Part shown: positions 23,831 to 52,799 of the stretch, piece after piece
Layout of the letters: each line of letters begins with the position of its first letter
How positions within the stretch are numbered: position 1 is the first letter of the stretch
DNA from: Planctomycetota bacterium
GTDB lineage: Bacteria; Planctomycetota; UBA8108; UBA1146
Reading direction: 5' to 3'
Length of the DNA: 64,000 bases
NCBI GenBank assembly: GCA_018694835.1
Contig: JABHOG010000015.1
Coordinates: forward strand, 108,192-172,191
Made by a program: the position numbers and the translations under genes
The notes under the pieces: model-generated
Seen by the model: the letters and a program-made list of their open reading frames with translations, nothing else
Database searches by the model: none
Told to the model about the DNA's origin: nothing

Positions 23831-24942
23831 AACCCCAGGAACCGCAGACAGATCACCCCTTCGACCATCCTCCCGACCAGTTGGATTCGCGTCTCGAACA
23901 GTGGTGCCAGGAACAGCAGCAGCCAAAATTCCGCGCCAAGCAAGTGCGTCAGCATCTGATTGATCAGCGCATCTACGATCCATTGGAGATGACCTCGCTG
24001 CCGGCAGAATTGCGCCAAGGACTGGCAGAAGGCATCCTCAGTTCTCCACTGGTTGTCGCCGATCAGCTCAATTCCACCGATGGGACCATCAAATTCCGTT
24101 TCATGCTGACAGACGGTCTCTCCATCGAGTCGGTCTGGATTCCAACCGACGATCGTGGAACCCTCTGCCTCTCCAGCCAGGTCGGTTGTGCTGCCGGTTG
24201 TACCTTCTGTGCCACCGGAACGATGAAACTGACCCGCAACCTGCATCCGAGGGAGATTGTCGCCCAGTGGCTGGCAGTGCACGCCACCACCGTGGCTCAA
24301 GGACTTTGTGGTGTCACCCAGGTAGTCTTCATGGGGATGGGCGAACCACTCCACAACTATCCTGCAGTCTCCAGAGCGATCGATTGGTTTTCATCTGCAC
24401 AGGGCTTTCAGTTCAGCCCCCGCAGGATCACCGTTTCGACCGTCGGAATCGTTCCCAAGATCGAGCAACTGGTCCACGACCATCCACAGGTAAGGCTCGC
24501 GGTCAGCCTTCACAGCGCAATCACCGAGACTCGTAACAGCATCGTTCCGATCAATCAACACCACTCCATCGAGGATCTGTCCGAGGTGCTGGTGAAGATC
24601 CGTGATGGCTCTCGAAGAATCAGCATCGAATACGTGGTTCTTCCTGGAATCAATGATGGTCCGGATCAGGCGAAAGCGCTGGCTCGATTCGCAGGAAAGT
24701 GCGGCGCACACATCAACCTGTTACCGTTTCACCCCTACGAAGGTGCGCTTTATGCAGCCGCGGGAGCGGCCGAGGTGGGTCAGTTCCTTTCACTGGTGCA
24801 GAAGCAATACGAGGGTTCTGTCACCGCGCGACGCAGCCGTGGGCTCGACATCGATGGAGCGTGCGGTCAGTTAGTCCTGAACAATCTCAAGAAACCCGCC
24901 ACCACGGATGGAACCGAACCGGGTGCATCCAAAAAGAGGTGA
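23827..24942 (+). CDS. rlmN: 23S rRNA/tRNA adenine-C2 methyltransferase RlmN (radical SAM)
   Basis: Radical-SAM cluster CAAGCTFCATG, followed by ...NVVFMGMGEPLHNY-like (VVFMGMGEPLHNY) and ...INLLPFHP... motifs typical of RlmN/Cfr. Confidence 0.9.
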   Translation: MKPQEPQTDHPFDHPPDQLDSRLEQWCQEQQQPKFRAKQVRQHLIDQRIYDPLEMTSLPAELRQGLAEGILSSPLVVADQLNSTDGTIKFRFMLTDGLSIESVWIPTDDRGTLCLSSQVGCAAGCTFCATGTMKLTRNLHPREIVAQWLAVHATTVAQGLCGVTQVVFMGMGEPLHNYPAVSRAIDWFSSAQGFQFSPRRITVSTVGIVPKIEQLVHDHPQVRLAVSLHSAITETRNSIVPINQHHSIEDLSEVLVKIRDGSRRISIEYVVLPGINDGPDQAKALARFAGKCGAHINLLPFHPYEGALYAAAGAAEVGQFLSLVQKQYEGSVTARRSRGLDIDGACGQLVLNNLKKPATTDGTEPGASKKR

Positions 24943-24993
24943 GACCCCGACTCGCAGGATCTCACCTCTGTATCACGATTTCATCGGTAGTGG

Positions 24994-26154
24994 CTAGCGC
25001 CCATCCACGACTGGATCTGGAGCGGGAACCGGCGCCGGTTTTGGCGCTGGTTTTGGCTTGGGCTTCTCCCACACGGGCTTTTTCGGTTTCGGCTTTGGCT
25101 TCTCCCAGACCGGTTTCTTGTCGCTATCCTTGGGGGTGGCTTCCTTGGCTCCCTCCAGTTCCTTGGCACGCTCCGCTTCTCGCTCACGGCGTACTTCATC
25201 GAAGGAGCGACCCTCTGGACGTCCAAACTTGGTCGAGGAAACCCCCGCATTGAGTGCGATCTCGTCATAGTTCTGTTCGAGACTCAGTTCTCCGTCCTCA
25301 AAGATCTTCTTGGTGGTCGGAACCTTGACCCAGCGATTGCGATCGTCACTGAATCGGATTCGGGTGTATTCACTGTAGAATACCTCCTTCTTGACCACCG
25401 CAGGAGCTTGCCCCTCGCTCCATGTCTTGCTCAGAAGCAATCCGTCATCGATGGAGAAGGCATAGTTCAGCACCTGGTTACCCGCGAACGCCTTCAACTC
25501 GACGATCTTGCACGGTGTACCGAGAATATCTCCGTCATCCTTGAGGCTCGCGATGTAGCCATTCTCGGCGAAGGAGATGAAGAAATCGTCGATATGCTTG
25601 TCCCACACGAACACGATGAGGGTCTTGCCGGCCAGGGGCGAAACCGCACCCATCGCCTTGACCCAGGCTTTCTCACCGTCGTATACCTGAACAAAGGTGA
25701 GAGGCTCGTTGTTCTTGGTCAGACCGAGACCCGGTAGCTGCCACTCTTCACGAATCATCAAGACGCCATCACCGGTGCGCTTGAGGAATCGTGCCATCTT
25801 CATGACGGTCTCGTTGGTCGGGTCGATCTTCTTGTTCTTGAATATCTCGACTCGATCACTGATCGAGAGCAAGGTCTCGCGTCCCCCGACCGCATCGAGG
25901 TATTTCTGAATTACCTCGAGAGCCGCGGGTTCGCTGGCAGGAATGCCTACCTCTCCGCCGAGAATGTCGTCTTCATCTACGATCGGCTTGGTTTCCTTCG
26001 CCTCTTGAGATGGTTCCTCTGCTGGGGGCGGATCTTGAATTGAAGTCAATGCCTGAGCGGGATCAGTGAAGGTCAACGTAGTGACCAGCAGCAATCCCAG
26101 CAATAACATGAGACCGGTCAGGTATTTCCCGGCGAGGATTCCATGATTCATCAA
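24994..26154 (-). CDS. Secreted hypothetical protein with Lys/Pro-rich repeat tail
   Basis: 386 aa. Signal peptide MMNHGILAGKYLTGLMLLLGLLLVTTLTFTDPAQA. C-terminus KKPVWEKPKPKP x2 followed by APKPAPVPAPDP. Confidence 0.7.
   Translation of the reverse strand: MMNHGILAGKYLTGLMLLLGLLLVTTLTFTDPAQALTSIQDPPPAEEPSQEAKETKPIVDEDDILGGEVGIPASEPAALEVIQKYLDAVGGRETLLSISDRVEIFKNKKIDPTNETVMKMARFLKRTGDGVLMIREEWQLPGLGLTKNNEPLTFVQVYDGEKAWVKAMGAVSPLAGKTLIVFVWDKHIDDFFISFAENGYIASLKDDGDILGTPCKIVELKAFAGNQVLNYAFSIDDGLLLSKTWSEGQAPAVVKKEVFYSEYTRIRFSDDRNRWVKVPTTKKIFEDGELSLEQNYDEIALNAGVSSTKFGRPEGRSFDEVRREREAERAKELEGAKEATPKDSDKKPVWEKPKPKPKKPVWEKPKPKPAPKPAPVPAPDPVVDGR
25049..25120 (-). repeat. 36-nt imperfect tandem duplication encoding KKPVWEKPKPKP x2
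   Basis: ggttttggcttgggcttctcccacacgggcttttt versus ggtttcggctttggcttctcccagaccggtttctt, 36 nt apart. Confidence 0.85.
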
Positions 26155-26323: not shown

Positions 26324-27625
26324 TCAAAACGACCCGGAGGCCCCATTCAGCACTTTATCGGGGCCACTGGAGGCGGGAACCGGCGTTACCGCAGGAGCCG
26401 GATCCATCAAGTGAGCGAATCCTTCCCGACGAAGCCACGAACGAACCGTCTGTAACGGTACGAACAGCCCCATGTGGGGAACCACCATCGGAGAGCGTTT
26501 GCCATAGGTGTAAATCATGCTGCTGATCCCTACCAGCTGGCCTTCTCCCGAGAGGAAGATCCCACCTCCCGAATTTCCGAAGAAAGTGGGAGCGCTGACC
26601 ATCCAGAAGATCTCATCGCCGACTGGCTTGTACTGGGAGGAGATCTCACCAAAGGTGGGGAGCGGTTGGTTTCCGAGGGGACAACCGACAGCATAGACGG
26701 TGTCAAAAACCGACAACTTCAAGCACACAGGCTCGCTGGCGGATTCTGCGACGAAGGGCCAGCGAGAGGTTCGATCGACTCTCACCAGGGATAGATCGGA
26801 GTCCTTGAGGGAAGCGATCTCCACTCCACGAAACACCTCACTGCCGAGACGCCCGATTTCTGGATCGAAGAAGCGAATCTCATTGACCACGACATCATCG
26901 AGAGCGAAGTCTCGGACCTCTTCGACGACATGGTAGGCGGTGACGATCCAGGTCGCCCAAAGGTTTTCATCGACCAGTTCACTGCTGACCACGACACCGC
27001 TGCCAACGGTGCCATTTCCTCTCAACTGGACGATCGGATAGATCATCCGCTCAACTTTTTTCTGCTGGCTAGAGGCGGCCACCGGGACCGGGGCTGGAAT
27101 CATCGATTCAATACGCGCCTCGATCCGTGAATCCAGGTCCTCGATGGTCTGACGGGTTCGATCGATTTCAGTGCCCACCCAGCGCTTCAATCCTGCGCTG
27201 GAATGGTTCATCTGCTCGAGGATTCTGTCCCGCTCCTCTTCCAATATCGCGCTGGTGTAGGGAACACTGCTGGCTCCCTCGCCGATGACACTCCACCGAT
27301 CGAATTTGACCACATCCAGAGGATCGGAGGCGGCGGTCTCGAGTGATGTCGTTGGGGAGAGATTTACATCCGGATCCTCTGCGGTGAAGGCTGCGTCGAG
27401 GAAGACGTCATGCCCCATCGCTTCGACCGGATCGATCTGACCGTCTCTACTGGCCGATAACCCCCAGAAAAAGGAGGTCGCAACGCAGATGATCAGAATG
27501 CCGCGTAATTGAGTGTGTAACTGCAACTTTCCCCCGTTCCAGCACGAGACCTTCTCGTCACTGTGTGGCCTACCGGACAGGCTGGCCGACAGAGGAGAAT
27601 ACGATGGGAAGGGAAGGTCGGGCAA
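26324..27625 (-). CDS. Membrane-anchored trypsin-like serine peptidase (S1 family)
   Basis: Candidate triad: His in VTAYHVV, Asp in LKDSDLSLVRV, Ser in FFGNSGGGIF. One N-terminal TM segment (GILIICVATSFFWGL). The exact start is uncertain. Confidence 0.75.
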   Translation of the reverse strand: MPDLPFPSYSPLSASLSGRPHSDEKVSCWNGGKLQLHTQLRGILIICVATSFFWGLSASRDGQIDPVEAMGHDVFLDAAFTAEDPDVNLSPTTSLETAASDPLDVVKFDRWSVIGEGASSVPYTSAILEEERDRILEQMNHSSAGLKRWVGTEIDRTRQTIEDLDSRIEARIESMIPAPVPVAASSQQKKVERMIYPIVQLRGNGTVGSGVVVSSELVDENLWATWIVTAYHVVEEVRDFALDDVVVNEIRFFDPEIGRLGSEVFRGVEIASLKDSDLSLVRVDRTSRWPFVAESASEPVCLKLSVFDTVYAVGCPLGNQPLPTFGEISSQYKPVGDEIFWMVSAPTFFGNSGGGIFLSGEGQLVGISSMIYTYGKRSPMVVPHMGLFVPLQTVRSWLRREGFAHLMDPAPAVTPVPASSGPDKVLNGASGSF

Positions 27626-27687: not shown

Positions 27688-30429
27688 CTATGAGGTCGAA
27701 GTGACCGTTTCCGGTTCACTCGAACTTCCCCCGGGATCGGAGGTGTAGATCAGTTTCAACAGGCGATCGGGCACGTGCACCACCCGGTCCGCAGGGCGTC
27801 CGCCGGTTTTTTTCACCACCGACTCCAGTTTCAGCGCCTGATCGATGACGAGGTTCTTGGGGGCATCGAGATCAACGGTGATTCGATCGACGATCTTCTC
27901 GTTGACCTGGACCGCCAATGAGACCTGAGAAGGTTGGAGCAGTTCCTCGCTGTGCTCGGGCCAGGATTCTTCATCGAGACGATCCGTTTCTCCCAGGCCT
28001 TCCCACAATTCATGGGCCATGTGCGGAGCGAAGGGAGCCAGCAGTACCACGAAGGTCTTGAGGGTCTGCCGATCCACCTCTTCCATGCTGATCTTGTCGC
28101 TGCGGAGCAACTTGACGAATTCCATGAAGGCACTGACCGCCTTGTTGAGGCGGAAGGTACGGATCGCCCGGCTCACTCTCCGGATCAGTCGATGTTTTGC
28201 CACCAGTACATCGCGGCTCACGAATCGACCTTCTCCGACCCTGGCGAGGATCGCCTCATGGGTCCGTTGGAGGAAGCGTGCACAACCACGCAATCCTTCC
28301 TCGTTCCACTCTGCATGATCTTGCGCAGGACCGAGGAACAAGAGATGAAGCCTCATCGCATCGGCGCCGTAGCGTTCCAGGTAGTCTGCGGCCAGCACTC
28401 GTGGCCCACGATGGGCTGTTGCGGGATCGGCACTTTCCGAAACATCCGCGGATCGAATTCGCCCCTGACTGAAGAGACGCCGAAATGGCTCTTCCCGACG
28501 AGTGATTCCCAGATCCTTGAGGAAATGGCTGATGAATCGTACATAGAGCAGGTGCAACTCGGCGTGCTCGATTCCTCCGACACACAAATTCACGGGAGCC
28601 CACTGCTGAACCAGCTCGGGTGCGGCAATTTGGCCGACCAGCGTCGGATCGAGGGATCGAAGATGGGTCCAACAGGATGCGATCCAGTCCGGCATCGTAT
28701 CGGTACAGCGGCGAGCGGCGGCACCACAACCGGGACAAGTCGTGTCGACCCACTGCGGGTACGCTGCCAGCGGGCTGCTCCCCTCAGAGGAGTTTTCGAC
28801 CTTTGCAATCTCTGGCAGCAATACCGGTAATTGATCCTCGGGGACAGGTACCTTGCCACACTCATCGCATTCGATGATGGGAATCGGTTCGCCCCAGATT
28901 CTTTGACGCTCGAAGGCCCAGTCGTGCAATTTCCAGTCGACATGCGATTCGACCAGATCGCGTGATTCCAGTGAACTCTGGATCGAGCGAGCGGAATCTC
29001 CCCCGTCGCTCCCCCTGCGTCGTCCCGACCGCCTCCTCCTTCGTCCCGACTGCTGACTTCCGCGAGTATGGGGCAGACCAAAGTTGTTGGCAAATTCGAG
29101 ATGAGCGGGATGCGCCGAGGGGATGCCGAGAATCGCACCGAAGCGAATCTCGGGGAGCACGTAACTGCTGACCCAGATCGGCATCTTATCGAGGGTCACG
29201 GGGTTGAGGCAGTAGGCTCCGGTCGGCACGCCATCGGGAGCTCCCCTGGATGTCACCCGATCTCGTTCAGAGAGTTGCCGACACTTCTCGATGTACTCGA
29301 TAACATCATCGCGCTGAATCGCATCGACGATGCCTTCCAGCAGCGGGTGCTCTGGACTGAGTACGACAAAGGTCGCATCGGCCAGAGCATCGATTCTCCG
29401 GGAGAAGACATCGATCTCTTCCCAGCCATCGTGAAGTTCTGCGCTGGCCTTGAGGGTCAGACGTGTGCCCTCCCTGCGGCCGATCCAGTTGCGTTGGAGT
29501 AGTTTGGTACGAGCGGGCCACTTCAGTTGCTTGAGACCCGTGTGAAGCGGCTCCGCATAATCGGTGATCGCCACCTTCCAGCCATTCTCGTAACGCACCA
29601 GGCCCTTCTCGTGCAACTTGAGGAAGATCCACTGTGACCAGCGATAGCAGTCGGGATCAGAACTGTTCAGTTCATGATCCCAATGCACCATCGCCCCGAA
29701 GTAGTTCAGCTGGTCACGCATCTTCTCGATCCCTTGTTCGACCACCTGCTTCGGTGGAAGACCAGAGGCTCTGGCTTCCTCTTCGATGGACAGGCCAAAG
29801 GAATCCCAGCCGATCGGACGGAAGACATCTCGGCCGCGCGCCTTCTGGTAGCGCGCCACGACATCATTGATGGCGATCCCCCGCAGTTGATTGACACTGA
29901 AACCATCGAGGGAAGGATAGGGAAACATGTCGAGACAATAGAAGGGGCGAAAATCGTCAGTCGATGCTGTCGTCGAAGGGTCCGGCGAAGATTCGGAACT
30001 TTGGCCGTCGTCAGCGCTCTCCGCATCATCACTGGTCTTCTCAGCGGTCGACTGTTCGCCACTGGTTTCTTCGATGACAGCTTCATCGGTGACAGATTCT
30101 TCGATCACGGCTTCTTCAACAATGGGCTCTTCACTACTCGAGTCCGCACCGTTCAAATCCGCAGCGAAGGCTCCCTCATCCGGCCGTTTCTCATCCGCCG
30201 CTGTTTCATCCACCGCTGTTTCATCCGCCGAAGATTCCTCACCCGAAGATTCCTCACCCGAAGATTCCTCAGCAGTGGCGGCTGGCTCCGCATCTACTGG
30301 AGCGGACTCGGGAATTGGATCGGGGATCGGTGCACTCGCTGCGGGGGTGCTACGAATCGGCGATAAGGGAGGATTCTGTTGCCAGATCTCCCTCCAGCGC
30401 TGTTCCAGTTGGTGCAGATCGACGGTCAA
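27688..30429 (-). CDS. Leucyl-tRNA-synthetase-like protein lacking HIGH, KMSKS and CP1 editing signatures (probable pseudo-synthetase paralog)
   Basis: Collinear with LeuS: FYCLDMFPYPS..., ...RPIGWDSFGL..., ...QRNWIGRREG..., ...ERQRIWGEPIPII..., ...VGGIEHAELHLLYVRF..., ...ERYGADAMRL.... The signature positions differ, as described in the findings. Confidence 0.8.
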   Translation of the reverse strand: MTVDLHQLEQRWREIWQQNPPLSPIRSTPAASAPIPDPIPESAPVDAEPAATAEESSGEESSGEESSADETAVDETAADEKRPDEGAFAADLNGADSSSEEPIVEEAVIEESVTDEAVIEETSGEQSTAEKTSDDAESADDGQSSESSPDPSTTASTDDFRPFYCLDMFPYPSLDGFSVNQLRGIAINDVVARYQKARGRDVFRPIGWDSFGLSIEEEARASGLPPKQVVEQGIEKMRDQLNYFGAMVHWDHELNSSDPDCYRWSQWIFLKLHEKGLVRYENGWKVAITDYAEPLHTGLKQLKWPARTKLLQRNWIGRREGTRLTLKASAELHDGWEEIDVFSRRIDALADATFVVLSPEHPLLEGIVDAIQRDDVIEYIEKCRQLSERDRVTSRGAPDGVPTGAYCLNPVTLDKMPIWVSSYVLPEIRFGAILGIPSAHPAHLEFANNFGLPHTRGSQQSGRRRRRSGRRRGSDGGDSARSIQSSLESRDLVESHVDWKLHDWAFERQRIWGEPIPIIECDECGKVPVPEDQLPVLLPEIAKVENSSEGSSPLAAYPQWVDTTCPGCGAAARRCTDTMPDWIASCWTHLRSLDPTLVGQIAAPELVQQWAPVNLCVGGIEHAELHLLYVRFISHFLKDLGITRREEPFRRLFSQGRIRSADVSESADPATAHRGPRVLAADYLERYGADAMRLHLLFLGPAQDHAEWNEEGLRGCARFLQRTHEAILARVGEGRFVSRDVLVAKHRLIRRVSRAIRTFRLNKAVSAFMEFVKLLRSDKISMEEVDRQTLKTFVVLLAPFAPHMAHELWEGLGETDRLDEESWPEHSEELLQPSQVSLAVQVNEKIVDRITVDLDAPKNLVIDQALKLESVVKKTGGRPADRVVHVPDRLLKLIYTSDPGGSSSEPETVTSTS
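30186..30273 (-). repeat. In-frame 15-nt tandem repeats in the acidic insertion of the LeuS-like gene
   Basis: cgaagattcctcacc occurs three times (30229-30273, last copy with 1 mismatch), encoding (G)EESS repeats. gctgtttcatcc(a/g)cc occurs twice (30200-30229), encoding DETA(V/A). Confidence 0.9.
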
Positions 30430-30635: not shown

Positions 30636-30711
30636 GGGGCTGTAGCTCAGCTGGGAGAGCGCCTGACTGGCAGTCAGGAGGTCAGGGGTTCGAGCCCCCT
30701 CAGCTCCACCA
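30636..30711 (+). tRNA. tRNA-Ala (anticodon GGC), CCA encoded
   Basis: Hand-folded cloverleaf. Acceptor GGGGCTG/CAGCTCC with the G3:U70 Ala identity pair, D arm GCTC/GAGC, anticodon stem CCTGA/TCAGG with loop CTGGCAG, T arm AGGGG-TTCGAGC-CCCCT, discriminator A plus CCA. Confidence 0.95.
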
Positions 30712-30728
30712 ATTTGAACCGATGCGCT

Positions 30729-30759
30729 CCTTCGTCTTGCGACGAAGGGGCGTTTTTTT
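30729..30759 (+). terminator. Rho-independent terminator after tRNA-Ala
   Basis: Stem CCTTCGTC / GACGAAGG with TTGC loop, followed by GGCG and TTTTTTT (30753-30759). Confidence 0.85.
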
Positions 30760-37479: not shown

Positions 37480-37566
37480 GCCGGAGTGGCGGAATTGGCA
37501 TACGCGGCGGATTCAAAATCCGCTGACTTTCGGGTCTTGTGGGTTCGAGTCCCACCTCCGGTACCA
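37480..37566 (+). tRNA. tRNA-Leu (anticodon CAA), class II with long variable arm, CCA encoded
   Basis: Hand fold. Acceptor GCCGGAG/CTCCGGT, D stem GCG/CGC with an 11-nt loop, anticodon stem GCGGA/TCCGC with loop TTCAAAA, 15-nt variable arm, T arm GTGGG-TTCGAGT-CCCAC, discriminator A plus CCA. Confidence 0.9.
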
Positions 37567-39009: not shown

Positions 39010-41301
39010 TCATTTATTGAGTCTTTCGAGGATCGCCTGACGCGCCTCCTCGAGCATCTGCAGCAGAGTTCTGGAGTGGTCGACCCCAGATTCCCCCAGA
39101 AGCGGCAGCCTGTGCTCTAGACGCTCCCTGAGGTGCGGCAGGTCTCCTCCCCCCGCCTGGGTCAGCCAGTACTCCACCGCTCTATCGTCGAGCCACGGCT
39201 GCTGAGGGAAGGCCACAGAGGAGCCTACCCGCTGCCACACCTCATCGATCGCCTCCGAAACATCCCGAGTAGCCGTAGAAGTGGGGTTGCCAGCCACCAG
39301 GATCACCTCTCCAGTACCCGGTGGACGCCAGATCTGTACCGGCCCGAGTGCTTTTCGGAAGGAAGAAAGGATCCCAGCAAACTCCTGAATTCCGATGCGA
39401 TAGAGCTGGAGCCACTGGATCACCACCCCATCTGCAGTGATCCGACGACTCAGCAATCTATGGAAATCGGGAGCAAATAGTGGCGCTGACCAGGGTAACC
39501 ACGGTTCCGATGGTTGGATCACTATGGCATTCCACAGACGTGGATCTCGAGCCAGTAGCGCCCGGGCATCCTGGATCCGGATACTGGGGGAGTTCTTTCC
39601 CCGTAGTGCCCAGTGTTCGATGGGAAAGGCCACCTCACCGGCACTGGAGAGCAGGACATCCTTGACCGCCGGTTCAATCTCTGAAACGACGATCTTTCCC
39701 GTCCAGGTGGAGGCCGCAGAGGCTACGGTAGTGCCCCCACCGAGCCCGACGATGAAGAGGTCGCCCTGCCCGGGACCGACCCAACTCGGCAACAGTCCCA
39801 GCAATACCTCGGTCGGCAGGTCCGCCATCGAAGGCGCTGAAGAATCGATGGCCACGCTACCCTCGATCCGTCCACCGACTCTCAGATAACTGGTGTTCTG
39901 GAGCAAGTCCCTTTCGATCTGCACGGTTCCGAGGCGACCCTGAACGCTGGTCAGGATTTCCCGGTTCTTCCACGCAGAAAGCGCCGTGCCCTCGATGATC
40001 TCCGAGCGAGACCACTGGAAGACCCCCGCTCCGAGCAACGATGCATCCCAGAACTGAGATGCGGACGCCAGCAGAAGCGCTCCACAGAGGTAGGAAGAAG
40101 CGGCTCCGCCGTGGCCTGACCGGAGCATCGGCAGACCGCCCACCAGTGTGGCGAATCCGCAGGCACCGAAGAGCCAAAGGGGACCATATTGAGGAATGAT
40201 CCAGAACGCAGCCATACTGGCACCGATCATCGATCCCAACAGGTTGAACCCTTGCAAGTACCCGGCACCGCGATCGAGTCGTCCCACTTGCCCATGGGAG
40301 ACCATCAACGAGGGGAGAATCAGACCGCAACAGAAACTTGGCAATCCGAGGATTCCCATCAACAGCAAGGACTTGATCACCACAAGGGTGACTCCCTGGT
40401 TCTCACCGACCCATCGAATGGCGGCAAGATAGAAGTATGGGCTCCAGGAAATCAGCAGCAAAGAGAGACCTTGAGAGATCAACCAGGAAGACCAGGCGAC
40501 TCTGAGGAAGCGAGCCTCACCAAATTTCTTGCGCATTTCTGGCATCAAGAGTGCACCCGCTGCGGCGCCCAGCAACGAAACTCCAGTCGAGATCCCGAAC
40601 ACCAGCAAACTCGAACCCAGTACTTCACCGAGCACTCGTACCCAACCCAGTTGTAACGCAAGCGAGATGCATCCGACCCAAGTTGCCATCAGAGTGGCTC
40701 GCTTGCTCACTCGACGATCTTCTCGGATCAACTCCGATTCCGTCGGCGTCACTGGTTCAGAAGGCAACGATGCCAGGCCCAGGAGCAACAGGCTCATCAC
40801 CAGAGTTCCGTGGACTCCCAGTAACGGCAACAGAAGCACCGGAGTCACGATGGCTCCCAGTGCACTTCCCAGATCGATGGCTGCGACTCCAGAGGAGGAT
40901 CGATGGAGCACTTCCGATGAATGGGTTCGAAATGCGGTCGTCACCGCAGCTCCAAGGGGGATCGAAGCACAGAGAAGTGGCAAGGAAACCACGATTTTAC
41001 CCAGCGTTGTCGAGACCAGCTCAAAACCTTCGATGAGCATGGGCAACAGGTAACCGACCCACACCACCGCCGCGACACAACCGAGCAGTGCGATTCGACA
41101 CCAGGTCGCAGGGACCGACCTGCGCTCCTTTACCGAAGCGGAGAAGATCTGACCGATGGCAAATCCGGCCAACGCCACCGTCACTGCCAGTGCAACCCCA
41201 TCGAGAGCACTGCCGAGAATCTTACCCAGTTGCCTGGCCAGTAAGATCTCCAGCATCATGGTCGAGGTTCCCACCAGTGCGAGTAGTCGATTGGCGGTCA
41301 A
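39010..41301 (-). CDS. Fused polytopic membrane / spermidine-synthase-like protein
   Basis: 763 aa. About 12 N-terminal TM helices, then a C-terminal SAM-fold spermine/spermidine-synthase-like domain (...DLFIVGLGGGTTVASAA...IVIQPSEPWLPWSAPLFAPDFH...). ATGA-type 4-nt overlap with the upstream gene. Confidence 0.75.
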   Translation of the reverse strand: MTANRLLALVGTSTMMLEILLARQLGKILGSALDGVALAVTVALAGFAIGQIFSASVKERRSVPATWCRIALLGCVAAVVWVGYLLPMLIEGFELVSTTLGKIVVSLPLLCASIPLGAAVTTAFRTHSSEVLHRSSSGVAAIDLGSALGAIVTPVLLLPLLGVHGTLVMSLLLLGLASLPSEPVTPTESELIREDRRVSKRATLMATWVGCISLALQLGWVRVLGEVLGSSLLVFGISTGVSLLGAAAGALLMPEMRKKFGEARFLRVAWSSWLISQGLSLLLISWSPYFYLAAIRWVGENQGVTLVVIKSLLLMGILGLPSFCCGLILPSLMVSHGQVGRLDRGAGYLQGFNLLGSMIGASMAAFWIIPQYGPLWLFGACGFATLVGGLPMLRSGHGGAASSYLCGALLLASASQFWDASLLGAGVFQWSRSEIIEGTALSAWKNREILTSVQGRLGTVQIERDLLQNTSYLRVGGRIEGSVAIDSSAPSMADLPTEVLLGLLPSWVGPGQGDLFIVGLGGGTTVASAASTWTGKIVVSEIEPAVKDVLLSSAGEVAFPIEHWALRGKNSPSIRIQDARALLARDPRLWNAIVIQPSEPWLPWSAPLFAPDFHRLLSRRITADGVVIQWLQLYRIGIQEFAGILSSFRKALGPVQIWRPPGTGEVILVAGNPTSTATRDVSEAIDEVWQRVGSSVAFPQQPWLDDRAVEYWLTQAGGGDLPHLRERLEHRLPLLGESGVDHSRTLLQMLEEARQAILERLNK

Positions 41302-43994
41302 GGCGATCCCTCCTCGGATTGCTGATCCTGACGCTCATCCTTCTCCACCGCATTCAGCGCATCTTCGATTCTCGAGCGGAGTTGAGGATCCTCGTCTTCA
41401 TTTTCGAGCAGGTGCTTTCGGTACCATTTTGCCGCTTCTGGTAATTTTCCGGCCTGGTGAGCCATCGCACCGATCTGGCGGAAAAGTCGCGGTTCCTGCA
41501 CTCCCACTTGTTGCTGATCCAACAACATCTTCAGTGCGGATTCAGCGCCCTCTACCTGCCGAAAAACCTCTGCCGCTTCCAGGATGAAGGCTCCACGCCC
41601 CACCACCTCGACTCGATCGAGCAGGTCACGGTAACCCACGAGAGCCAGCGGCCAGTCCTTTTGTCCGGCATCGAGCCGAGCCACCCTCAGGATCAGATCG
41701 ATTCGGCGTTGCTTCTCGGCCGGGCCTTCGGCGTGTTTCTGCGCCTCCACCAGCGCTTCGCGCGCCTTACCGGGCTGCCCCCTCCCGAGCATCCGATCTG
41801 CCAGCATCGAAAGCGCAGTGATGCGAGTCGTATCGATCTGAGCCGGTGCGGTGCCATCCTTCAACTTCTTGCGGATCGCCGCCTGCTGGATGCCCTGAAG
41901 AGCCTGTGGATTATCCGGCACCACCTGCAACACCGTACGGAAGTGTTCCAGCGCGGCATCGATCTGATCGGTGGAGAGTAGAAGTTCGCCGAGTGACAGA
42001 TGCGAGGGAAGATGTGTGGGATCACTTTCGAGAACTCGAATCAGCAACTGACGCGCCTCTGTCGATTTCCCGAGCCCCAGCCAGGCCTCTGCTTTCCGGT
42101 ACAGAGCACTACTTCGACGTCCCTCCTCATCGAGATGAAGAAGCGCCTCATCGAATCGTGCCAATGCTTCTTCGAAGTTTTTCTCCTCCAACGCCATCAT
42201 CCCCGCCTGATACTCGACACGGGAGATGGCTCTTCCACTGATCTGCTCCGCCAGTGCTCTCGCTTCTTCGAAGTAACGGGTTCGATTTTCCGATTCAGAG
42301 GTTGCGGCCAGATACAGGGTGGCATCGAGACGGACAGGGTCCTGCACCCGGTCGAGAAGCACCAGTTGTAGTGCTGCATCTCGGGCCCCGGGGTAGTCCC
42401 CCAGTCGCTCCTTGACCTTGAGAGACTCGTACAGCGGTGCTTGCTGGAGAGCAACGGCGGTCCCATCAGTATCCTCTTCAGCCAGCAAGATGTTGAGGTC
42501 CCGATCCGCCTGGGTCAAATTTCCATCTCCGCCGATCTCTGCCAGTAAACCGGCTCGAATCTGCAACGCCTGGAGATACATCCCCTGCTGCAATCGATCC
42601 CGCGATTCCTCGCTAAGGATCTCGATGGTGTGGCCAAGATCGGCGATCGCCATCGACTTCCAGCCACGATTTCTGGCCGCTTCAGCGTGTCCAAACCAGG
42701 CGCGTGCACAGTTGGGCTGCTCCGCCACGGCACTGTCCCAAAGAGGATAAGGGCCCTCCCAATCCACCAGCCGATCCCGAGTCATCAAGGTCATCAAGAT
42801 CCCTAGAACCACCACAATGGTGATCCTGGAACCCGGGGTGCGACCTTCGAAGAAGCAGAGCATCGCAGCCCACGGGATCAGTAATGCGACCATCGGCAAG
42901 TAGATAAACCTCTCCGCAAAGCGTTCAGGGTGAGGAAAAATCTGCAGGACAGGGGAAAGCAAGACGATAAAGAGGGGCACCACCATTGCGGCCAGATAGG
43001 CCCGCTGACGAAAGCGTCTCCATGAGTACAGCAAACCTCCCGCAACCAGTAACCAGCTCGCCGCAGTAGTCCAGGGCTGGAGCCATCCAGTCGAGGCGGA
43101 AAATGCTGCGTGTGAATAATCGACCGACAATCCGACCGGCCAGAGAAACAGACCGACGTAGGAGATCATAGCCCGCCCGGCGGTCATCACTGTCGTCAAC
43201 GGAGACCCACCCCAGTAACTGGCCCCGGCACCGGGATCCTGAATCGACAGGATTCGGATCGACATCGCCAGCATGACCAGCGTCACAGGAATCCACATAC
43301 GGCTCCAGTAGCGCCACTCTTTCCGGTCGGATGGTCCCCCAGGATCGATCCAGGTCAGCGCCAAGAGCACCAGTGGCAAAGTGGCGGCCATCTCCTTGGC
43401 GGCCATCGAAAGCCCCCCCAGTAGCGCCACCAGCAGCACGCGACCCCAACCGGGCCTGGTCCCCCCGCCCAGAGCCAGCAGCAAGGCTCCCAGGTAGGCC
43501 GCTGTGAACAGTACATCTCGTCGACCGGAGATCCACGCCACGGCTTCGGTTTGAACTGGGTGAACCAGGAATGCCATCGCCACCGCAAAGGATGTGAAGT
43601 GCCCACCTGGGGGATAGATTCGAAACGCCAGCAAGTAGAGCAGGGCCGCACACAAACCATGCAGGAGAAGATTATGCAGGTGGAATATCACCGAAGCTTG
43701 ATCCCGATCGAGACCCAGTTTCATCGAAACCAAGGCATCCAGACGATAGGAGAAAAAGCGTAAAGGTCGAAATCCGACGCGCACCTGATCGGTCGATGGG
43801 TCGGGTTCAGAGACCACTGTCCACCACTGAGTCAGCTCTTCTGGAACTCCATCGAAGGATCTCCACAGCCATTCATTCTTCTCGACCAATCGGACATCAT
43901 CGAAGACCCAATCCCCGTCAAGGACAGGGAAGTAGACCAGTACCGATGCGATGCATGCGAGAATGATAATTCCACATCGAAGTCGCTGGCTCAT
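41298..43994 (-). CDS. TMTC/PMT-like GT-C glycosyltransferase with C-terminal TPR array
   Basis: 898 aa. N-terminal ...DGDWVFDDVRLVEKNEW... (the F-x-DD motif of TMTC/DUF1736-type GT-C enzymes), about 10 TM helices, then about 450 aa of TPR repeats. Confidence 0.7.
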   Translation of the reverse strand: MSQRLRCGIIILACIASVLVYFPVLDGDWVFDDVRLVEKNEWLWRSFDGVPEELTQWWTVVSEPDPSTDQVRVGFRPLRFFSYRLDALVSMKLGLDRDQASVIFHLHNLLLHGLCAALLYLLAFRIYPPGGHFTSFAVAMAFLVHPVQTEAVAWISGRRDVLFTAAYLGALLLALGGGTRPGWGRVLLVALLGGLSMAAKEMAATLPLVLLALTWIDPGGPSDRKEWRYWSRMWIPVTLVMLAMSIRILSIQDPGAGASYWGGSPLTTVMTAGRAMISYVGLFLWPVGLSVDYSHAAFSASTGWLQPWTTAASWLLVAGGLLYSWRRFRQRAYLAAMVVPLFIVLLSPVLQIFPHPERFAERFIYLPMVALLIPWAAMLCFFEGRTPGSRITIVVVLGILMTLMTRDRLVDWEGPYPLWDSAVAEQPNCARAWFGHAEAARNRGWKSMAIADLGHTIEILSEESRDRLQQGMYLQALQIRAGLLAEIGGDGNLTQADRDLNILLAEEDTDGTAVALQQAPLYESLKVKERLGDYPGARDAALQLVLLDRVQDPVRLDATLYLAATSESENRTRYFEEARALAEQISGRAISRVEYQAGMMALEEKNFEEALARFDEALLHLDEEGRRSSALYRKAEAWLGLGKSTEARQLLIRVLESDPTHLPSHLSLGELLLSTDQIDAALEHFRTVLQVVPDNPQALQGIQQAAIRKKLKDGTAPAQIDTTRITALSMLADRMLGRGQPGKAREALVEAQKHAEGPAEKQRRIDLILRVARLDAGQKDWPLALVGYRDLLDRVEVVGRGAFILEAAEVFRQVEGAESALKMLLDQQQVGVQEPRLFRQIGAMAHQAGKLPEAAKWYRKHLLENEDEDPQLRSRIEDALNAVEKDERQDQQSEEGSP

Positions 43995-46932: not shown

Positions 46933-49746
46933 TCAGTTATAGAGCTTCTGCTCTTCAGCGCGCAGGTCGATAATCTTGGCAGTGATGAGGATGTAGAGAC
47001 TCCTCTTCTCGTTCAAGTAAGCCTTCCTCCGGAACAGATTCTTGAGGAGCGGAATGTTACCCAGAATCGGCACCTGTGACTTGTGGCTCATCTGATTCAG
47101 ACTTCGGAATCCGCCCAGCAATACAGACCCACCATCGGGAACTGTCACCGACGTGAACGCCTGCTGCAGCGAGATCTCGGGCAGATCGATTTCCACCAGG
47201 CTTGCCGCATTGTTGAGAGTTCCGAGACTGATGGTCACGGTAGAGATCACACCATTGATGAGACTGGCCAAAGTCGGACGCACATCGACGGTGATGTAAC
47301 GGCGATCGGCAGAGATCACCGGTCGCACATCCAGCACCACCCCGTCCTGGAAAGTATCGATCACCGGGTCAGCCACCTCGGAAACCACCAGTCCAGTACC
47401 TCCGGAAACCAGCTCGTAATCCTGAACATAGGAACGCTGAGTGATCACCGAAACGTGAACCCGCTGACCGTTGGAAGCGGTCACCTGAGGTGCAGTGACG
47501 ATTCGTGCCGCTCGCTGTTCCTGACTCGCACGGATGATGGCGTTGATCTGGAACGGATCGAGCCAGGTCACCTGCATCGACAAGCCACGCAAAGTGGCGT
47601 TGAGTCGATTACCACGTGCGGCTCCGACAAACCCGTCGAGGATGTGCTGCATTCGCCCAGCAGTTCGATCCTGCCCCATGATCAGTGCAGGATCGGTGGG
47701 ATCCCCTAGATTGTTGAATCCGATGTCTGAGCCACCGGTTCCAGAAGCATTCAGGTTGCCATATGCAGTACCAAAACCCTGTCCGGGAGGCTGCCCGAGG
47801 TTGCGAGAATCAACTCCGATATCCTCCAGGAAGTCCTCAACCATGTCGATAAAGCGTGCCTCAACCACGACAAAGACGTCGCTGTTGGCCCGCAAGTTCT
47901 CGAGGAAATCCATGATGGAAAGGTGCAATTCCCTGGTGGCTGTGACGAGGATCTGTCCCTTATGACCGCTGATGGTCGAACCGGACTCATCCCAGATATC
48001 TGTTCCACCGGTCGATTCCTGGATCAACTCGACCAGATCATCCGGAGTCAGTTCAGCATCTTCTTCCTCGTCGAATCCTCCGAAATCGAAGGGGTTACTA
48101 CCCCCTCCTTCTTCTCCACCATCGTTACTGGTGACCCGAATCGAAGGACCAGGGAAATCACGGATCTTGTTGAGGATATCGGTGACGTTGTAAATCTCGA
48201 AAATGAGGTTTCCGAAAGCGTTTTCCGGTTCCGTGATGAACAGAATGTTTTCACGGAAGGTGTACGCCTTTCCGGTCGACTTCATGATGAGGTCCAGCGC
48301 CTCTCCCAGTTTCACTCCTTCAAGTGAAAGATTCACCGGCACATCGGCGCCCTCGATCTCGTTATCGATCTGGATGTTGAGATCACTGACACTACGAAGG
48401 AAAGCCACTACCTCTGCGAGGTTGGCATCGGGGAAATCGAACGAGGTCGATCCGGAAGCCAGTGTTCTACGGATCTTGCGAATCTCCGGTGATTCCTCGA
48501 GGTTATTGGAGGAAAGCCCGCTCAGCCGCTGCTGCACTTCACCTTGCCAGAAATCACGTGAATCGGGAAAGCGGAACGGATCTTCGTAAGGGATCGCCGA
48601 TCGCTCGAGGTCTTCCCAAACGCGAGTCTCTTGCTCCTTGTTACGGGAGAGGTAATTGACATACCGATGAGATGCCATGTACTCCTGCGCTCGCTCCTGC
48701 AGTCGTCTGGCAGCCCCATTCTGAGGGTCAATCTGAAGAATCGTCTTGCACAGTTGCGAGGCCTCGCGGAAGTCCTCACGGACCATCGCGTCCTCGATCC
48801 TGTCCATCAGGGTGGAAATCCGCTCGATGCGACGTTTCTCCGCCTCAGAGGTCAGACGCTCCGCCTCGCGAATGGCAAACACTTCACGATCACGGCGATT
48901 GGTTTCTTCGCTGCTGATCTTCAGGTTTCGGGCACGGTCGTAGAGGGATTGTGCCTCCTCCTGCATGTCCGAGACATCGACCCCGTACTCGAACCAGATC
49001 AGTCTTTCTCTGGCTCGCTGCAGCAGATCGAGAGCTTCTTCAGTCCGATTCTCCTCCAGCGCAGTTTTACCCTCTGCCAGGAAGCGAGTCGCTTCGCTGA
49101 GACGCTGCTGCTCGAGAACCTTGACCTCTTCACCAAACTGCTGAAGCACCGTGAGGATCTCACCATCACGACGGCCCAGGAACATCAGGCAGCGTGCCAG
49201 ATTCTTCTTGGCTTCCTGCAGGCTCGGATCGCTATTCAGAGCTCTACGGTAAGCGCGCTCCGCAGCAGAGTAGTCCGCTTCTGCAAAGAAACGATCTGCC
49301 TGGCTCACCAACCACTGGGCAGTTTTGCGCCGCTCCTGTACCTCAAGCGAGATATCGTCAGCGATCTTTCCCACCGAATCATCAGCGTCTTGGCTCGCTG
49401 AAGATGTGCGAGAAGCGTCTTGGCTCGCTGAAGATGTGCGAGAGAAGAGATCCTGCTGGGAGTCGTCCGCAACAGCTCTAGGTGGCTCCAGCGCTACCTC
49501 AGTCGGCGCAGCCGCTCGAACCCCGTCAGAGCTTCCGCTGCAACCGGATAGCGATGTGACGAGGATTCCAGCGGACAGGAGTCCGCACAGAACCACTGCG
49601 AAATTTGTAAACGCACGTGAAATTGAAACACGTGTACTTGAAGCTTGGGTCTCGTTCACGAGAGCACCCTTTCTTTTTTCGCCAGCATCTTCTTGGTGAA
49701 GAAACAGACGAGCTCGACATTTAGCGATCAAATTACAGCACGGCAC
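46933..49746 (-). CDS. Secretin B (GspD/PilQ superfamily) with long helical TPR-like N-terminal region; probable lipoprotein
   Basis: C-terminal secretin core ...VTVPDGGSVLLGGFRSLNQMSHKSQVPILGNIPLLKNLFRRK...SLYILITAKII.... N0-like ...FDFPDANLAEVVAFLRSVSDLNIQID.... Lipobox ILVTSLSGC. The probable true start is the GTG at 49659. Confidence 0.85.
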   Translation of the reverse strand: MPCCNLIAKCRARLFLHQEDAGEKRKGALVNETQASSTRVSISRAFTNFAVVLCGLLSAGILVTSLSGCSGSSDGVRAAAPTEVALEPPRAVADDSQQDLFSRTSSASQDASRTSSASQDADDSVGKIADDISLEVQERRKTAQWLVSQADRFFAEADYSAAERAYRRALNSDPSLQEAKKNLARCLMFLGRRDGEILTVLQQFGEEVKVLEQQRLSEATRFLAEGKTALEENRTEEALDLLQRARERLIWFEYGVDVSDMQEEAQSLYDRARNLKISSEETNRRDREVFAIREAERLTSEAEKRRIERISTLMDRIEDAMVREDFREASQLCKTILQIDPQNGAARRLQERAQEYMASHRYVNYLSRNKEQETRVWEDLERSAIPYEDPFRFPDSRDFWQGEVQQRLSGLSSNNLEESPEIRKIRRTLASGSTSFDFPDANLAEVVAFLRSVSDLNIQIDNEIEGADVPVNLSLEGVKLGEALDLIMKSTGKAYTFRENILFITEPENAFGNLIFEIYNVTDILNKIRDFPGPSIRVTSNDGGEEGGGSNPFDFGGFDEEEDAELTPDDLVELIQESTGGTDIWDESGSTISGHKGQILVTATRELHLSIMDFLENLRANSDVFVVVEARFIDMVEDFLEDIGVDSRNLGQPPGQGFGTAYGNLNASGTGGSDIGFNNLGDPTDPALIMGQDRTAGRMQHILDGFVGAARGNRLNATLRGLSMQVTWLDPFQINAIIRASQEQRAARIVTAPQVTASNGQRVHVSVITQRSYVQDYELVSGGTGLVVSEVADPVIDTFQDGVVLDVRPVISADRRYITVDVRPTLASLINGVISTVTISLGTLNNAASLVEIDLPEISLQQAFTSVTVPDGGSVLLGGFRSLNQMSHKSQVPILGNIPLLKNLFRRKAYLNEKRSLYILITAKIIDLRAEEQKLYN
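49385..49444 (-). repeat. 30-nt tandem duplication inside secretin B
   Basis: gcgtcttggctcgctgaagatgtgcgaga(a/g) occurs twice back to back (29/30 identical), encoding SRTSSASQDA twice. Confidence 0.95.
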
Positions 49747-51662: not shown

Positions 51663-52799
51663 CTAATGATTCCAAACAGAGTTTGGTGCCAACTTTTGTA
51701 ACCTCTGGGTCAATTCTTCGACTCTATCGTTCAATCCAAGTTCCTTGGCAGCGCTCTTGGCCCGAAACAACGATTCCGCGAGGATGTCACCATTGCCAGT
51801 GGTAGCGATCACCGCAGCCCTGAAGTAGCGAATCAGTGCCCATTGCAACTGAGTTCGATCGCCACCCGCCTGGCCATGACTGGCTCTTCCCCAGATCAAC
51901 CATGCCCTCGCTCTGGAAGCGGTTGTTGCTGTGGAATTTCGATCACGATTTTCCAGCACTTTTTGGCGAACAGTATCGGTCGCGGAAGACCATTGTTTCT
52001 GTCCCAACTGACAACTGGCATATCCTAGCCACGCAACGGTGCCCATCGAAGCCCCTGCCTGAGAATCGTTGGCGACCGCGGAGAACAGTTCACGAGCTTC
52101 GGTCCATTTTTCCTGGGCGAGCAACACCTCTGCCTTGCCCAGGGTCCCTCCCTGGATCCACTTCTTGCCCAGGTCTCCCTGGGCCAGTGGCTGGAGTGCC
52201 TGCAAGGCATCGGACCACTTCCCGGAACTCTTGTAGGCGGCCGACAGGCCCATCCGGGCGTACGGCACATAGAAGTCCTTTTTCGGCTCGTATGCTGCGA
52301 TGAAGGCATCAAAAGCACCAATCGCCGCAGTCAGTTTCGAGGAATCTTGCTGTCCCAGACGTAGTAGCGCCTCTGCCAGAAGATAACTGGCATTGGACCG
52401 ATGACGGTCGGCTCCCTGACTGCTGGCAGCTGTCAGAGCGCTCACCGCTCCTTCCAGATCTCCTTGCTCAAGCGCCCCACGCCCCCGGGAGAGATTAGCA
52501 GGCTCTCCGGAGAAGCGAAGTTCCAGCACCTTTTCGGAGGAGAGTTTCTGGGCAGTGCTGACCCCGGGTAACCGGTACTCGACCTGTTCCCAGGTAGCGG
52601 TCGAGATGGTGACCCCCTCGTAGTTCCTGCCTCCTGTGACGATGATTTCATCGGCACGAACAGAAGAGTGGCCCACCAGTCCACTGGTGAGTACGGCGAA
52701 TACGGTCAATATCCATCGACTCCACCCTTGAGCTGCGTGAGCGGTCAGAACGAGACTATTTTCTAATTTCATCAATTCGTCTTTCATCGTCACTGGCAA
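51663..52799 (-). CDS. Periplasmic TPR-like protein (378 aa)
   Basis: Signal/anchor WILTVFAVLTSGLVGHSSVRA followed by helical repeats (...YLLAEALLRLGQ..., ...GKAEVLLAQEKWTEARELF...). Tightly abuts or overlaps the upstream gene. Confidence 0.7.
   Translation of the reverse strand: MPVTMKDELMKLENSLVLTAHAAQGWSRWILTVFAVLTSGLVGHSSVRADEIIVTGGRNYEGVTISTATWEQVEYRLPGVSTAQKLSSEKVLELRFSGEPANLSRGRGALEQGDLEGAVSALTAASSQGADRHRSNASYLLAEALLRLGQQDSSKLTAAIGAFDAFIAAYEPKKDFYVPYARMGLSAAYKSSGKWSDALQALQPLAQGDLGKKWIQGGTLGKAEVLLAQEKWTEARELFSAVANDSQAGASMGTVAWLGYASCQLGQKQWSSATDTVRQKVLENRDRNSTATTASRARAWLIWGRASHGQAGGDRTQLQWALIRYFRAAVIATTGNGDILAESLFRAKSAAKELGLNDRVEELTQRLQKLAPNSVWNH

Follow-up and report, generated by a model that had tools for sequence, protein, structure and literature searches.

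The DNA analysed here is a stretch of 64,000 nucleotides from a Planctomycetota bacterium (NCBI GenBank assembly GCA_018694835.1, contig JABHOG010000015.1, positions 108,192 to 172,191 of the forward strand), which we call the window. On its minus strand it carries a gene related to leuS, the gene for bacterial leucyl-tRNA synthetase (LeuRS), followed by a protease gene and a third, unannotated gene. A preliminary description, made from the sequence alone, had noted that the catalytic signatures of LeuRS are replaced in this gene and had proposed that its product is a pseudo-synthetase recruited to another role. Our results support this proposal. The motif losses persist in a rigorous alignment, the gene is under purifying selection and the new motifs are fixed across a monophyletic family; taken together, these observations argue that a recruited pseudo-synthetase is the right reading.

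The open reading frame (ORF) of 913 codons had been described as collinear with bacterial LeuRS, and all comparisons agree with this. Pfam recognises LeuRS editing, class I anticodon-binding and class I catalytic domains. The NCBIfam model TIGR00396 (leuS_bact) gives a score of 594.6 bits, which exceeds the curated equivalog cutoff of 548.4, whereas TIGR00395 gives only 85.7 bits against a cutoff of 648.5, the best matches being bacterial LeuRS. A phmmer search of the PDB sequences matches the LeuRS of Thermus thermophilus (Tth; 2v0c/1h3n) in three collinear pieces (E 3e-144). The AlphaFold2 model built from the family alignment has a mean predicted local distance difference test score (pLDDT) of 77.5, and only residues 29-157, 458-475, 664-673 and 900-913 are of low confidence. 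When this model is compared with known structures using Foldseek, a superposition suggested in the preliminary description, the 50 best PDB matches are all LeuRS (top match 2bte_A, E 5e-63, TM score 0.70-0.73). The LeuRS fold and domain order are present: Rossmann core, CP1, anticodon-binding domain and C-terminal domain. The N-terminus, MTVDLHQLEQRW, is also found in relatives whose gene starts with ATG.

Close to this N-terminus is an acidic low-complexity insert (Table 1) with a pLDDT below 50. The N-terminal linker measures 0-164 amino acids (aa) in the family but 8-17 aa in canonical LeuRS, and the acidic expansion occurs in most members. We considered whether the insert could act as an intramolecular mask of the basic patches described below. 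This was rejected: the charges do not co-vary (Spearman rho about 0) and the insert is short or absent in several members. Loss of the large leucine-specific domain in comparison with Thermus was likewise discarded as a special trait, since the closest canonical LeuRS sequences also lack it.

The signature motifs were placed using an HMMER alignment to Tth LeuRS together with a 40-sequence MAFFT alignment, and residues were counted in 32 family sequences and compared with 87 canonical LeuRS. The losses persist against both the solved LeuRS structures and the 87 canonical sequences. At the HIGH position the family carries Ser (31/32), Asn (26/32, with Ser in the other 6) and Gln (32/32), whereas canonical LeuRS has His, Gly and His at 100%; both His residues and the Gly are replaced in all 32 sequences. 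The preliminary description had recognised this loss but was one residue out in its position (29890-29901 covers F-S-V-N). For KMSKS, its range of 28390-28467 includes the aligned site, and the loss is borne out. The loop follows the family pattern x-x-x-x-H-R-G-[PD]-R-[VI] (H673 in 24/32, R677 in 30/32), no KMSKS-like string was found in any family member and, with a pLDDT below 50 in the AlphaFold2 model, the loop is predicted to be disordered. The connective segment with the ZN domain had been reported as absent. This is correct for the window protein but not for the family as a whole: the deletion is limited to the window's subclade (P0001-14, P0022 and P0032 only, in the MAFFT alignment) and deeper members retain the string 'KWCxxC...LANEE'. 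Replacement of both CP1 editing motifs is confirmed. In the T-rich motif, positions T247, T248 and T252 (Tth numbering) vary across the family, and in the second motif, which reads RFGAILGIPSAHPAH in the window protein, the equivalent of D347 is His in 26 sequences, Gln in 3 and Leu in 3. HIGH, KMSKS and the ZN domain act in catalysis (PMC13454842). The ZN domain contacts ATP and the CCA end of the tRNA, and its R178 binds the ATP gamma-phosphate (PMC13454842).

Among 251 columns that are at least 90% conserved in the 87 canonical LeuRS, 116 are kept in the family, and the core motifs MFPYPS, GWD, RQRxWGEPIP and GGxEHxxLHLLY are retained. We take the retained motif GGIEHAELHLLY to line the adenosine/leucine pocket. 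The main family also keeps M40, F41, Y43, D80, E540, H541, H545 and Q574 (Tth numbering), which we likewise assume to be leucine/adenosine pocket positions. Other positions have switched to new, fixed residues (H49S, G51N, H52Q, H75R, Y535C, D347H and Gly/Val-to-Arg in the KMSKS loop), and where canonical LeuRS has Met in its 'QGM' motif, the family has Arg (R657) throughout. Invariant residues specific to the family number 43, of which 11 are newly gained Arg or Lys. The loop after CP1, which includes the run GRRRRRSGRRRG, has a net charge of +6.6 compared with -2.4 in canonical LeuRS, and the block formed by residues 728-778 has a net charge of +10.5 compared with -1.4. This block holds a cluster of family-specific invariant residues and is also found in two divergent relatives (P0135 and L045, see below). 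As judged from the alignments, the altered motifs are more than lost: new conserved residues are fixed in their place, with new basic surfaces gained. The anticodon-binding and C-terminal regions had both been thought to be retained. The anticodon-binding domain keeps 14/16 canonical invariants; the C-terminal domain keeps its predicted fold but none of the canonical invariants (0/9), and has lost its net positive charge.

The ratio of non-synonymous to synonymous substitution rates (dN/dS), a check proposed at the outset, was obtained by comparing the window gene with a 92%-identical orthologue (L013). It is 0.136 for the whole LeuRS-like gene, 0.179 for the downstream protease and 0.098 for the third gene. 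The LeuRS-like gene is under strong purifying selection and is not decaying. Values are 0.035 for the N-terminal Rossmann half, which includes the site of the former HIGH, 0.085 for the C-terminal Rossmann half and 0.044 for the anticodon-binding segment at residues 701-830, within which the basic block falls. CP1 is relaxed (0.216), and the acidic insert has the highest value in the gene (0.37). The protein thus combines the properties of a pseudoenzyme: a synthetase fold, catalytic signatures that are gone and a sequence under purifying selection.

A homologue search of 5.8 billion proteins defines the family as clusters P0001-P0033, with scores of at least 776 bits and 44-99% identity. There is then a sharp break in score, ordinary LeuRS following at 617 bits or less. 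The named members are all metagenome-assembled genomes (MAGs) of Planctomycetota, in which the protein is labelled 'class I tRNA ligase family protein' or 'leucine--tRNA ligase'. GFSV[NS]Q at the HIGH position, the KMSKS replacement pattern and degenerate editing motifs are common to all 33 clusters, and the family is monophyletic on a long stem in the tree. An exhaustive HMMER search of 1.84 billion 50%-identity proteins yielded few family representatives, together with one deeper branch, P0135.

The clade was also scanned using one genome per GTDB species and the lineage-specific third gene as an anchor. The LeuRS-like alignment itself is unfit for this purpose since a trial with viral contigs gave [LM]QR[NH]WIGR, which is common to canonical LeuRS. 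The full-length LeuRS homologues found through this shared motif in the IMG/VR viral collection (L010-L012) are 29-33% identical to the window protein. The clade scan identified 34 uncultured MAGs, nearly all labelled Planctomycetota, and a scan of metagenomes added 31 loci, in which every LeuRS-type gene is non-canonical. The phyletic distribution, a further point for verification, is therefore clade-wide in uncultured Planctomycetota (34 species genomes and 31 metagenome contigs), from marine and sediment habitats. One locus, L019 (QNYK01000062.1), is labelled 'Bacillota bacterium isolate MAG 7' but includes the full Planctomycetota-type locus with 72% identity to the window; an error of taxonomic labelling or of binning is the probable cause. 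In the genome loci, the HIGH position could be read in 28 main-family genes and is SVNQ, SVSQ or SANQ in each of them. The ORF is intact (~830-1050 aa) across the 33 clusters and 34 species genomes, and the same sequence was recovered in independent assemblies.

Positional orthologues reach down to 23% identity of the LeuRS-like gene, with the neighbours retained. A three-neighbour-gene tree distinguishes clade A, the main family including the window, from clade B, which contains P0135, L044/L045 and L046/L047. In P0135 (MBN1420086.1, which bears the annotation 'leucine--tRNA ligase'), HIGH is replaced by RLEQ and KMSKS by VIHGA; the ZN domain, the positions aligned to the pocket and the second Asp of the editing site are still present. 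L045 (1158 aa) scores 347 bits with TIGR00396 and has lost GWD, WIGR and GGxEH...LHLLY. In L046 (772 aa, 141 bits) there is no synthetic-site motif and the KMSKS loop is deleted, and L047 (807 aa, 136 bits) is in the same state. This provides a natural series in the family from 'only ATP motifs lost' to 'almost everything lost'. Within the second Rossmann half, the L045 gene (4758-8231) also has an acidic insertion of ~330 aa that is rich in Glu, Ala and Pro, and its editing-type strings (VFTTRVET, GAIMGVPAHE) are better kept than in the main family. The acidic insert of the main family is N-terminal instead; it seems that disordered acidic inserts were acquired on more than one occasion in this family. 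HIGH and KMSKS are lost in all branches of clades A and B. The simplest history would therefore be a single catalytic loss in the common ancestor of the clade, which, on this reconstruction, must already have had another LeuRS. No outgroup with a canonical leuS at the same locus was seen in the 34 genome loci or the 31 metagenome loci.

The 64-kb window, the 34 genome loci (~600 kb in all) and the metagenome loci screened in the same way yielded no second leuS. Three clusters considered as the housekeeping LeuRS of the same genomes (P0034, P0035 and P0134) were rejected: their relatives are Aminicenantes, Wallbacteria, Omnitrophica, Aerophobetes and Latescibacteria, and the P0035 contig carries ZapA. 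The long named LeuRS representatives from the exhaustive search were also rejected, as they belong to bacteria of the candidate phyla radiation (CPR). We infer with high confidence that a separate, real LeuRS is encoded elsewhere in these genomes, because HIGH, KMSKS and the ZN domain are catalytic (PMC13454842) and because of the erosion series. Orthologues that score as low as 136-141 bits and have no synthetic-site motif imply that those genomes, at least, need another LeuRS. Given this series, it is very unlikely that the LeuRS-like gene is the only leuS of its genome.

In every member looked up, the LeuRS-like gene is followed on the same strand by the Trypsin_2 protease and the unannotated protein (~350-390 aa). 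The order LeuRS-like gene, protease, third gene, convergent rlmN holds in all 34 MAGs wherever the contig is long enough. NfeD/FloA are located upstream in the opposite orientation, and rlmN is bona fide (TIGR00048, 302 bits compared with a cutoff of 290). The whole region of ~10 genes is equally syntenic (FloA/NfeD upstream; RlmN and DprA downstream). The protease adjoins the LeuRS-like gene at every locus except in the P0135 lineage (L014/L049), where a prolyl-tRNA synthetase (ProRS) gene intervenes and an aspartyl-tRNA synthetase (AspRS) gene is found just past DprA (L014 10262-11707, 18045-19823; L049 3-578). This location among housekeeping synthetase genes hints that the pseudo-synthetase may descend from the original leuS at this position.

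The catalytic residues of the protease (H232/D277/S352) are intact in 53/53 orthologues. A membrane-anchored trypsin-like protease had been placed 62 nt downstream of the LeuRS-like gene. The identification stands but the distance assumes the longest ORF: in near-identical contigs the gene callers start the protease 33 codons later, with a TTG at 27526 after GGGGGA. This is the probable start and gives a gap of ~161 nt. Typical intergenic gaps measure ~100-300 nt. The third protein of the window has no Pfam or NCBIfam match, and one orthologue has a weak LolA_like match (E 0.02). Its C-terminus is a tail of repeats rich in Lys and Pro, KPVWEKPKPKPKKPVWEKPKPKPAPKPAP, the orthologues have similar tails, and its single-sequence structure model has a pLDDT of 42. 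In a consensus scan, no minus-strand hairpin comparable to that which follows the third gene (Table 1) was found between the LeuRS-like gene and the third-gene end, which, within the reach of such a scan, fits one transcription unit.

Table 1. Positions, in the window, of the LeuRS-like gene with its altered and retained motifs, and of the features that follow it. Residues are numbered as in the window protein unless marked Tth.
Feature	Position	Strand	Basis and remarks
LeuRS-derived gene, putative pseudo-synthetase	27688..30429	-	913 aa, TTG start; Pfam, TIGR00396, phmmer, AlphaFold2 model, dN/dS
Acidic low-complexity insert, residues 29-157 (41 D/E, 3 K/R)	29959..30345	-	Composition; between N-terminal helix and first Rossmann strand
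HIGH-equivalent S178-V-N-Q181 (Tth H49-M-G-H52)	29887..29898	-	HMMER and MAFFT alignments
ZN (zinc-knuckle) deletion junction, residues 279-283 RYENG	29581..29595	-	Tth 151-189 ('NWCP...LANEEV') without counterpart
SRRIDA at editing T-rich motif TTRPDT	29386..29403	-	Alignment
RFGAILGIPSAHPAH at editing motif GTGAIMAVPAHDxRD	29101..29145	-	Alignment; second Asp (Tth D347) replaced by His
Arg-rich loop, residues 458-475, within SGRRRRRSGRRRGSDGG	29005..29058	-	Replaces canonical post-CP1 segment; family-conserved; low pLDDT
Retained motif GGIEHAELHLLY (Tth G537-Y548)	28543..28578	-	G618, G619, E621, H622, H626, Y629 invariant in family and canonical LeuRS
KMSKS-equivalent P669-A-T-A-H673 then R-G-P-R-V (Tth 637-641)	28396..28425	-	HMMER and MAFFT alignments
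Basic block, residues 728-778, first helices of anticodon-binding domain	28096..28248	-	Family-specific; net charge
DegP/HtrA-like trypsin-fold serine protease, membrane-anchored, without PDZ	26324..27625	-	Pfam Trypsin_2; weak DegQ/DegS matches; one N-terminal transmembrane-like segment
Third gene, unannotated; N-terminal signal/anchor sequence, Lys/Pro-rich tail	24994..26154	-	Conserved from 94% down to 33% identity in 34 species
Terminator-like hairpin, 15-bp stem then T run	24935..24969	-	Directly after third gene; consensus scan

Rfam identifies two tRNAs only in the window, and no leader or riboswitch upstream of the LeuRS-like gene. The tRNA-Ala(GGC) gene (30636-30711, plus strand) is oriented opposite to the LeuRS-like gene, 206 nt upstream of its start, and has a strong terminator-like hairpin (30724-30753, plus strand) after it. 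It is part of a block, located between the LeuRS-like gene and NfeD1b, which also includes a 147-aa membrane ORF, acyltransferase and PAP2 genes. In the deeper loci L006-L008, NfeD1b is directly upstream of the LeuRS-like gene without this block, which therefore looks subclade-specific. The tRNA-Leu(CAA) gene (37480-37566, plus strand) is ~7 kb from the LeuRS-like gene, downstream of FloA, with no conserved link seen. A functional link to either tRNA was rejected, as the intervening block is missing from L006-L008.

Elsewhere in the window, pheT (8079-10139, minus strand) encodes an apparently ordinary beta chain of phenylalanyl-tRNA synthetase, in which the domains B3_4, B5, tRNA_synthFbeta and FDX-ACB are recognised; the genome thus has at least one canonical synthetase gene that looks normal. 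The large region from 39010 to 62359 (minus strand) includes two secretin genes (46933-49746 and 55705-58209), several genes for long TPR proteins (41298-43994 and 52790-55645) and, at 60476-62359, a PilM/FtsA-like gene, and looks like a duplicated type IV pilus or type II secretion-like machinery.

From the altered motifs we infer with high confidence that the LeuRS-like protein would neither form leucyl-adenylate (Leu-AMP) nor charge or edit tRNA. The best explanation, which we hold to be probable, is that of a LeuRS-derived, non-catalytic, polyanion-binding (probably RNA/tRNA) protein with a regulatory or scaffold role. The synthetic pocket would be remodelled, with the presumed leucine/adenosine positions kept, the His residues changed to Ser, Asn or Gln, and Arg added (R204, R657, R674 and R677). 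Two new basic surfaces, the first helices of the anticodon-binding domain and the Arg-rich post-CP1 loop, would bind a polyanion, for which tRNA(Leu) or another RNA would be the likeliest ligand, and the protein might serve as a sensor, a sequestering factor or a scaffold outside aminoacylation. That it acts by binding and not by catalysis is the weakest step of this explanation; our confidence in a binding role is moderate to low.

A number of points weigh against this explanation. A canonical leuS has been seen in no family-bearing genome among the loci screened, and the nearest canonical LeuRS clade (~40% identity) is from other phyla. In LeuRS the C-terminal domain binds the variable arm and D-loop of tRNA(Leu) (PMC13454842); the loss of all nine invariants and of positive charge from this domain makes canonical docking of tRNA(Leu) doubtful. 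In clade B, L045-L047 have lost the synthetic-site motifs, including the presumed leucine pocket, so that a function common to the whole clade cannot rest on the pocket. The roles given to individual residues of the pocket and editing site are, moreover, those that we presume from the LeuRS structural literature. In addition, the strict conservation of the new active-site residues could equally reflect a new catalytic activity.

The main rival follows from this last point. In a repurposed enzyme, the remodelled site (S178, N180, Q181, R204, R657, H673, R674, R677 and the presumed leucine pocket) would catalyse a new ATP-independent reaction, for example one whose donor is Leu-tRNA(Leu) or leucine, cyclodipeptide synthases serving as the analogy. 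This would account for the near-invariance of the replaced motif residues, for Rossmann halves whose dN/dS is among the lowest in the protein and for the eight pocket-aligned positions kept in the main family. We nevertheless consider it unlikely, since L045-L047 retain the gene together with its neighbours although the whole pocket is lost, since disorder is predicted for the KMSKS-equivalent loop, and since there are no candidate acceptor or partner biosynthetic genes nearby. Alternatively, the protein might be a cytoplasmic adaptor or regulator of an envelope module, composed of the protease and the exported, possibly LolA-like protein, and act through protein-protein contacts instead of RNA. 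The gene order is kept at every locus that is long enough (34 genomes and 31 metagenome contigs), to 23% LeuRS-like identity, the third gene is followed by one strong terminator-like hairpin, and none of the 53 protease sequences has lost the triad. However, the ~10-gene neighbourhood is equally syntenic, which makes adjacency weak evidence, and a housekeeping ProRS separates the two genes in the L014/L049 lineage. The gaps of typically ~100-300 nt also count against an adaptor, as does the protease start at 27526, which would leave only ~6 residues before the transmembrane segment and thus scarcely any cytoplasmic part. We regard this reading as rather improbable.

The window protein scores above the TIGR00396 equivalog cutoff, retains the presumed leucine pocket and is accompanied by no second leuS in the sequences searched, and the P0135 orthologue, located among the housekeeping ProRS/AspRS genes, is annotated as a leucine--tRNA ligase. 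All this would be expected if it were the sole, functional LeuRS of the organism with non-canonical signature motifs. Such an enzyme is nonetheless highly improbable: H49, G51, H52 and the entire KMSKS motif are replaced in all members, orthologues eroded to 136-141 bits share this loss, the window's subclade has lost the ZN domain, in which R178 binds the gamma-phosphate of ATP (PMC13454842), and the gene diverges about like RlmN and much faster than FloA. A decaying pseudogene or an assembly artefact can scarcely be credited. Loss of catalytic motifs would fit decay, but the ORF is intact in 33 clusters and 34 genomes, dN/dS is 0.14 and independent assemblies agree. Equally hard to credit is a spare LeuRS for antibiotic self-resistance. 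Divergent second LeuRS genes do exist as self-immunity genes, for example AgnB2 (5ah5, among the structural matches). Self-resistance LeuRS are, however, active enzymes and hence need HIGH and KMSKS; here these signatures are lost and there is no biosynthetic cluster nearby. Finally, two analogies go further, and we give them a slim chance: the protein might be an ATP-free enzyme that uses Leu-tRNA(Leu) or bound leucine, in the rebuilt and Arg-rich active site, to modify a target linked to the protease module, or a sensor of leucine or uncharged tRNA(Leu) comparable to eukaryotic LARS1 in signalling. In the former case, class Ia would have its own parallel to the evolution of a cyclodipeptide synthase or aminoacyl-transferase from a synthetase.

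On the evidence of its sequence and predicted fold, the protein is best described as a full-length bacterial pseudo-synthetase of class Ia in which the motifs have been rebuilt and whose gene has fixed partners. New biology has emerged time and again from proteins derived from synthetases, among them HisZ, PoxA, YadB and the cyclodipeptide synthases. The erosion series, the selection on the rebuilt site, the basic surfaces and the fixed partners provide handles on the reuse of a full-length class Ia scaffold. There is also a practical aspect. Orthologues deposited as 'leucine--tRNA ligase' include P0024 and P0135, while near-identical ones are deposited as 'class I tRNA ligase family protein'. 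The set of 120 bacterial marker proteins used in phylogenomics includes TIGR00396 (PMC10073702). As the window protein passes this model, and given the ligase labels, members of the family could be picked up as, or alongside, the LeuRS marker. This might distort marker-based trees, completeness and contamination estimates and metabolic reconstructions in this Planctomycetota clade.

Compared with bacterial LeuRS (TIGR00396; T. thermophilus 2bte/1h3n and E. coli 4aq7), the window protein has the same fold and domain order, with 30-40% identity and a TM score of ~0.7. As a candidate LeuRS it agrees in fold and in TIGR00396 score, and departs at HIGH, KMSKS, the ZN domain and the CP1 editing site. 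It lacks these together with the T-rich motif, the editing Asp and the canonical C-terminal residues, and adds the ~130-aa acidic insert, the Arg-rich loop and the basic surface of the anticodon-binding domain. It differs from self-resistance LeuRS of the AgnB2 type in having no intact signatures and no biosynthetic genes in its neighbourhood. Cyclodipeptide synthases are derived from class Ic synthetases, and have lost the ATP-binding signatures while keeping the amino-acid pocket. They are small (~230-300 aa), consist of the Rossmann core only and are found in biosynthetic clusters. In contrast, the window protein keeps every LeuRS accessory domain and has no tailoring genes nearby.

Precedents for duplicate LeuRS-type proteins with weak or no charging activity are found in the archaea. 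LeuRS-I of Sulfolobaceae makes Leu-AMP and binds tRNA(Leu) but does not charge it, and its CP1 editing domain is disrupted (PMC9437257). Both LeuRS-I and LeuRS2 of Halobacteria are second LeuRS-type proteins with impaired or absent aminoacylation (PMC9437257; PMC4005665). The two bind tRNA(Leu), with little or no charging of it (PMC9437257), and these duplicates are thought to be tRNA-dependent and to act outside translation (PMC9437257). LeuRS-I is, however, archaeal and keeps a working ATP site, whereas the family described here is bacterial in type, has lost HIGH and KMSKS and, unlike the archaeal duplicates, is confined to a Planctomycetota clade with its own conserved neighbours. A 2022 review includes no LeuRS-like protein, and only the archaeal duplicates LeuRS-I and LeuRS2, of unknown role (PMC9437257); our literature search found no description of a LeuRS-like pseudo-synthetase from Planctomycetota or other bacteria.

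HisZ mediates the allosteric inhibition of histidine biosynthesis when histidine is present (PMC9437257). HisZ and SLIMP are, like the family described here, adenylation-free synthetase paralogues under selection for a binding or regulatory role, and a further likeness to HisZ is that the main family appears to keep the leucine pocket. There are also differences. HisZ and SLIMP belong to class II, whereas the present family is of class I, and the partner of HisZ is known (HisG). In the present family, no gene of leucine biosynthesis or of another metabolic partner is linked; the conserved neighbours encode an envelope protease and an exported protein. By analogy, aminoacyl-tRNA synthetase-derived pseudoenzymes such as HisZ would be the known proteins that the family most resembles.

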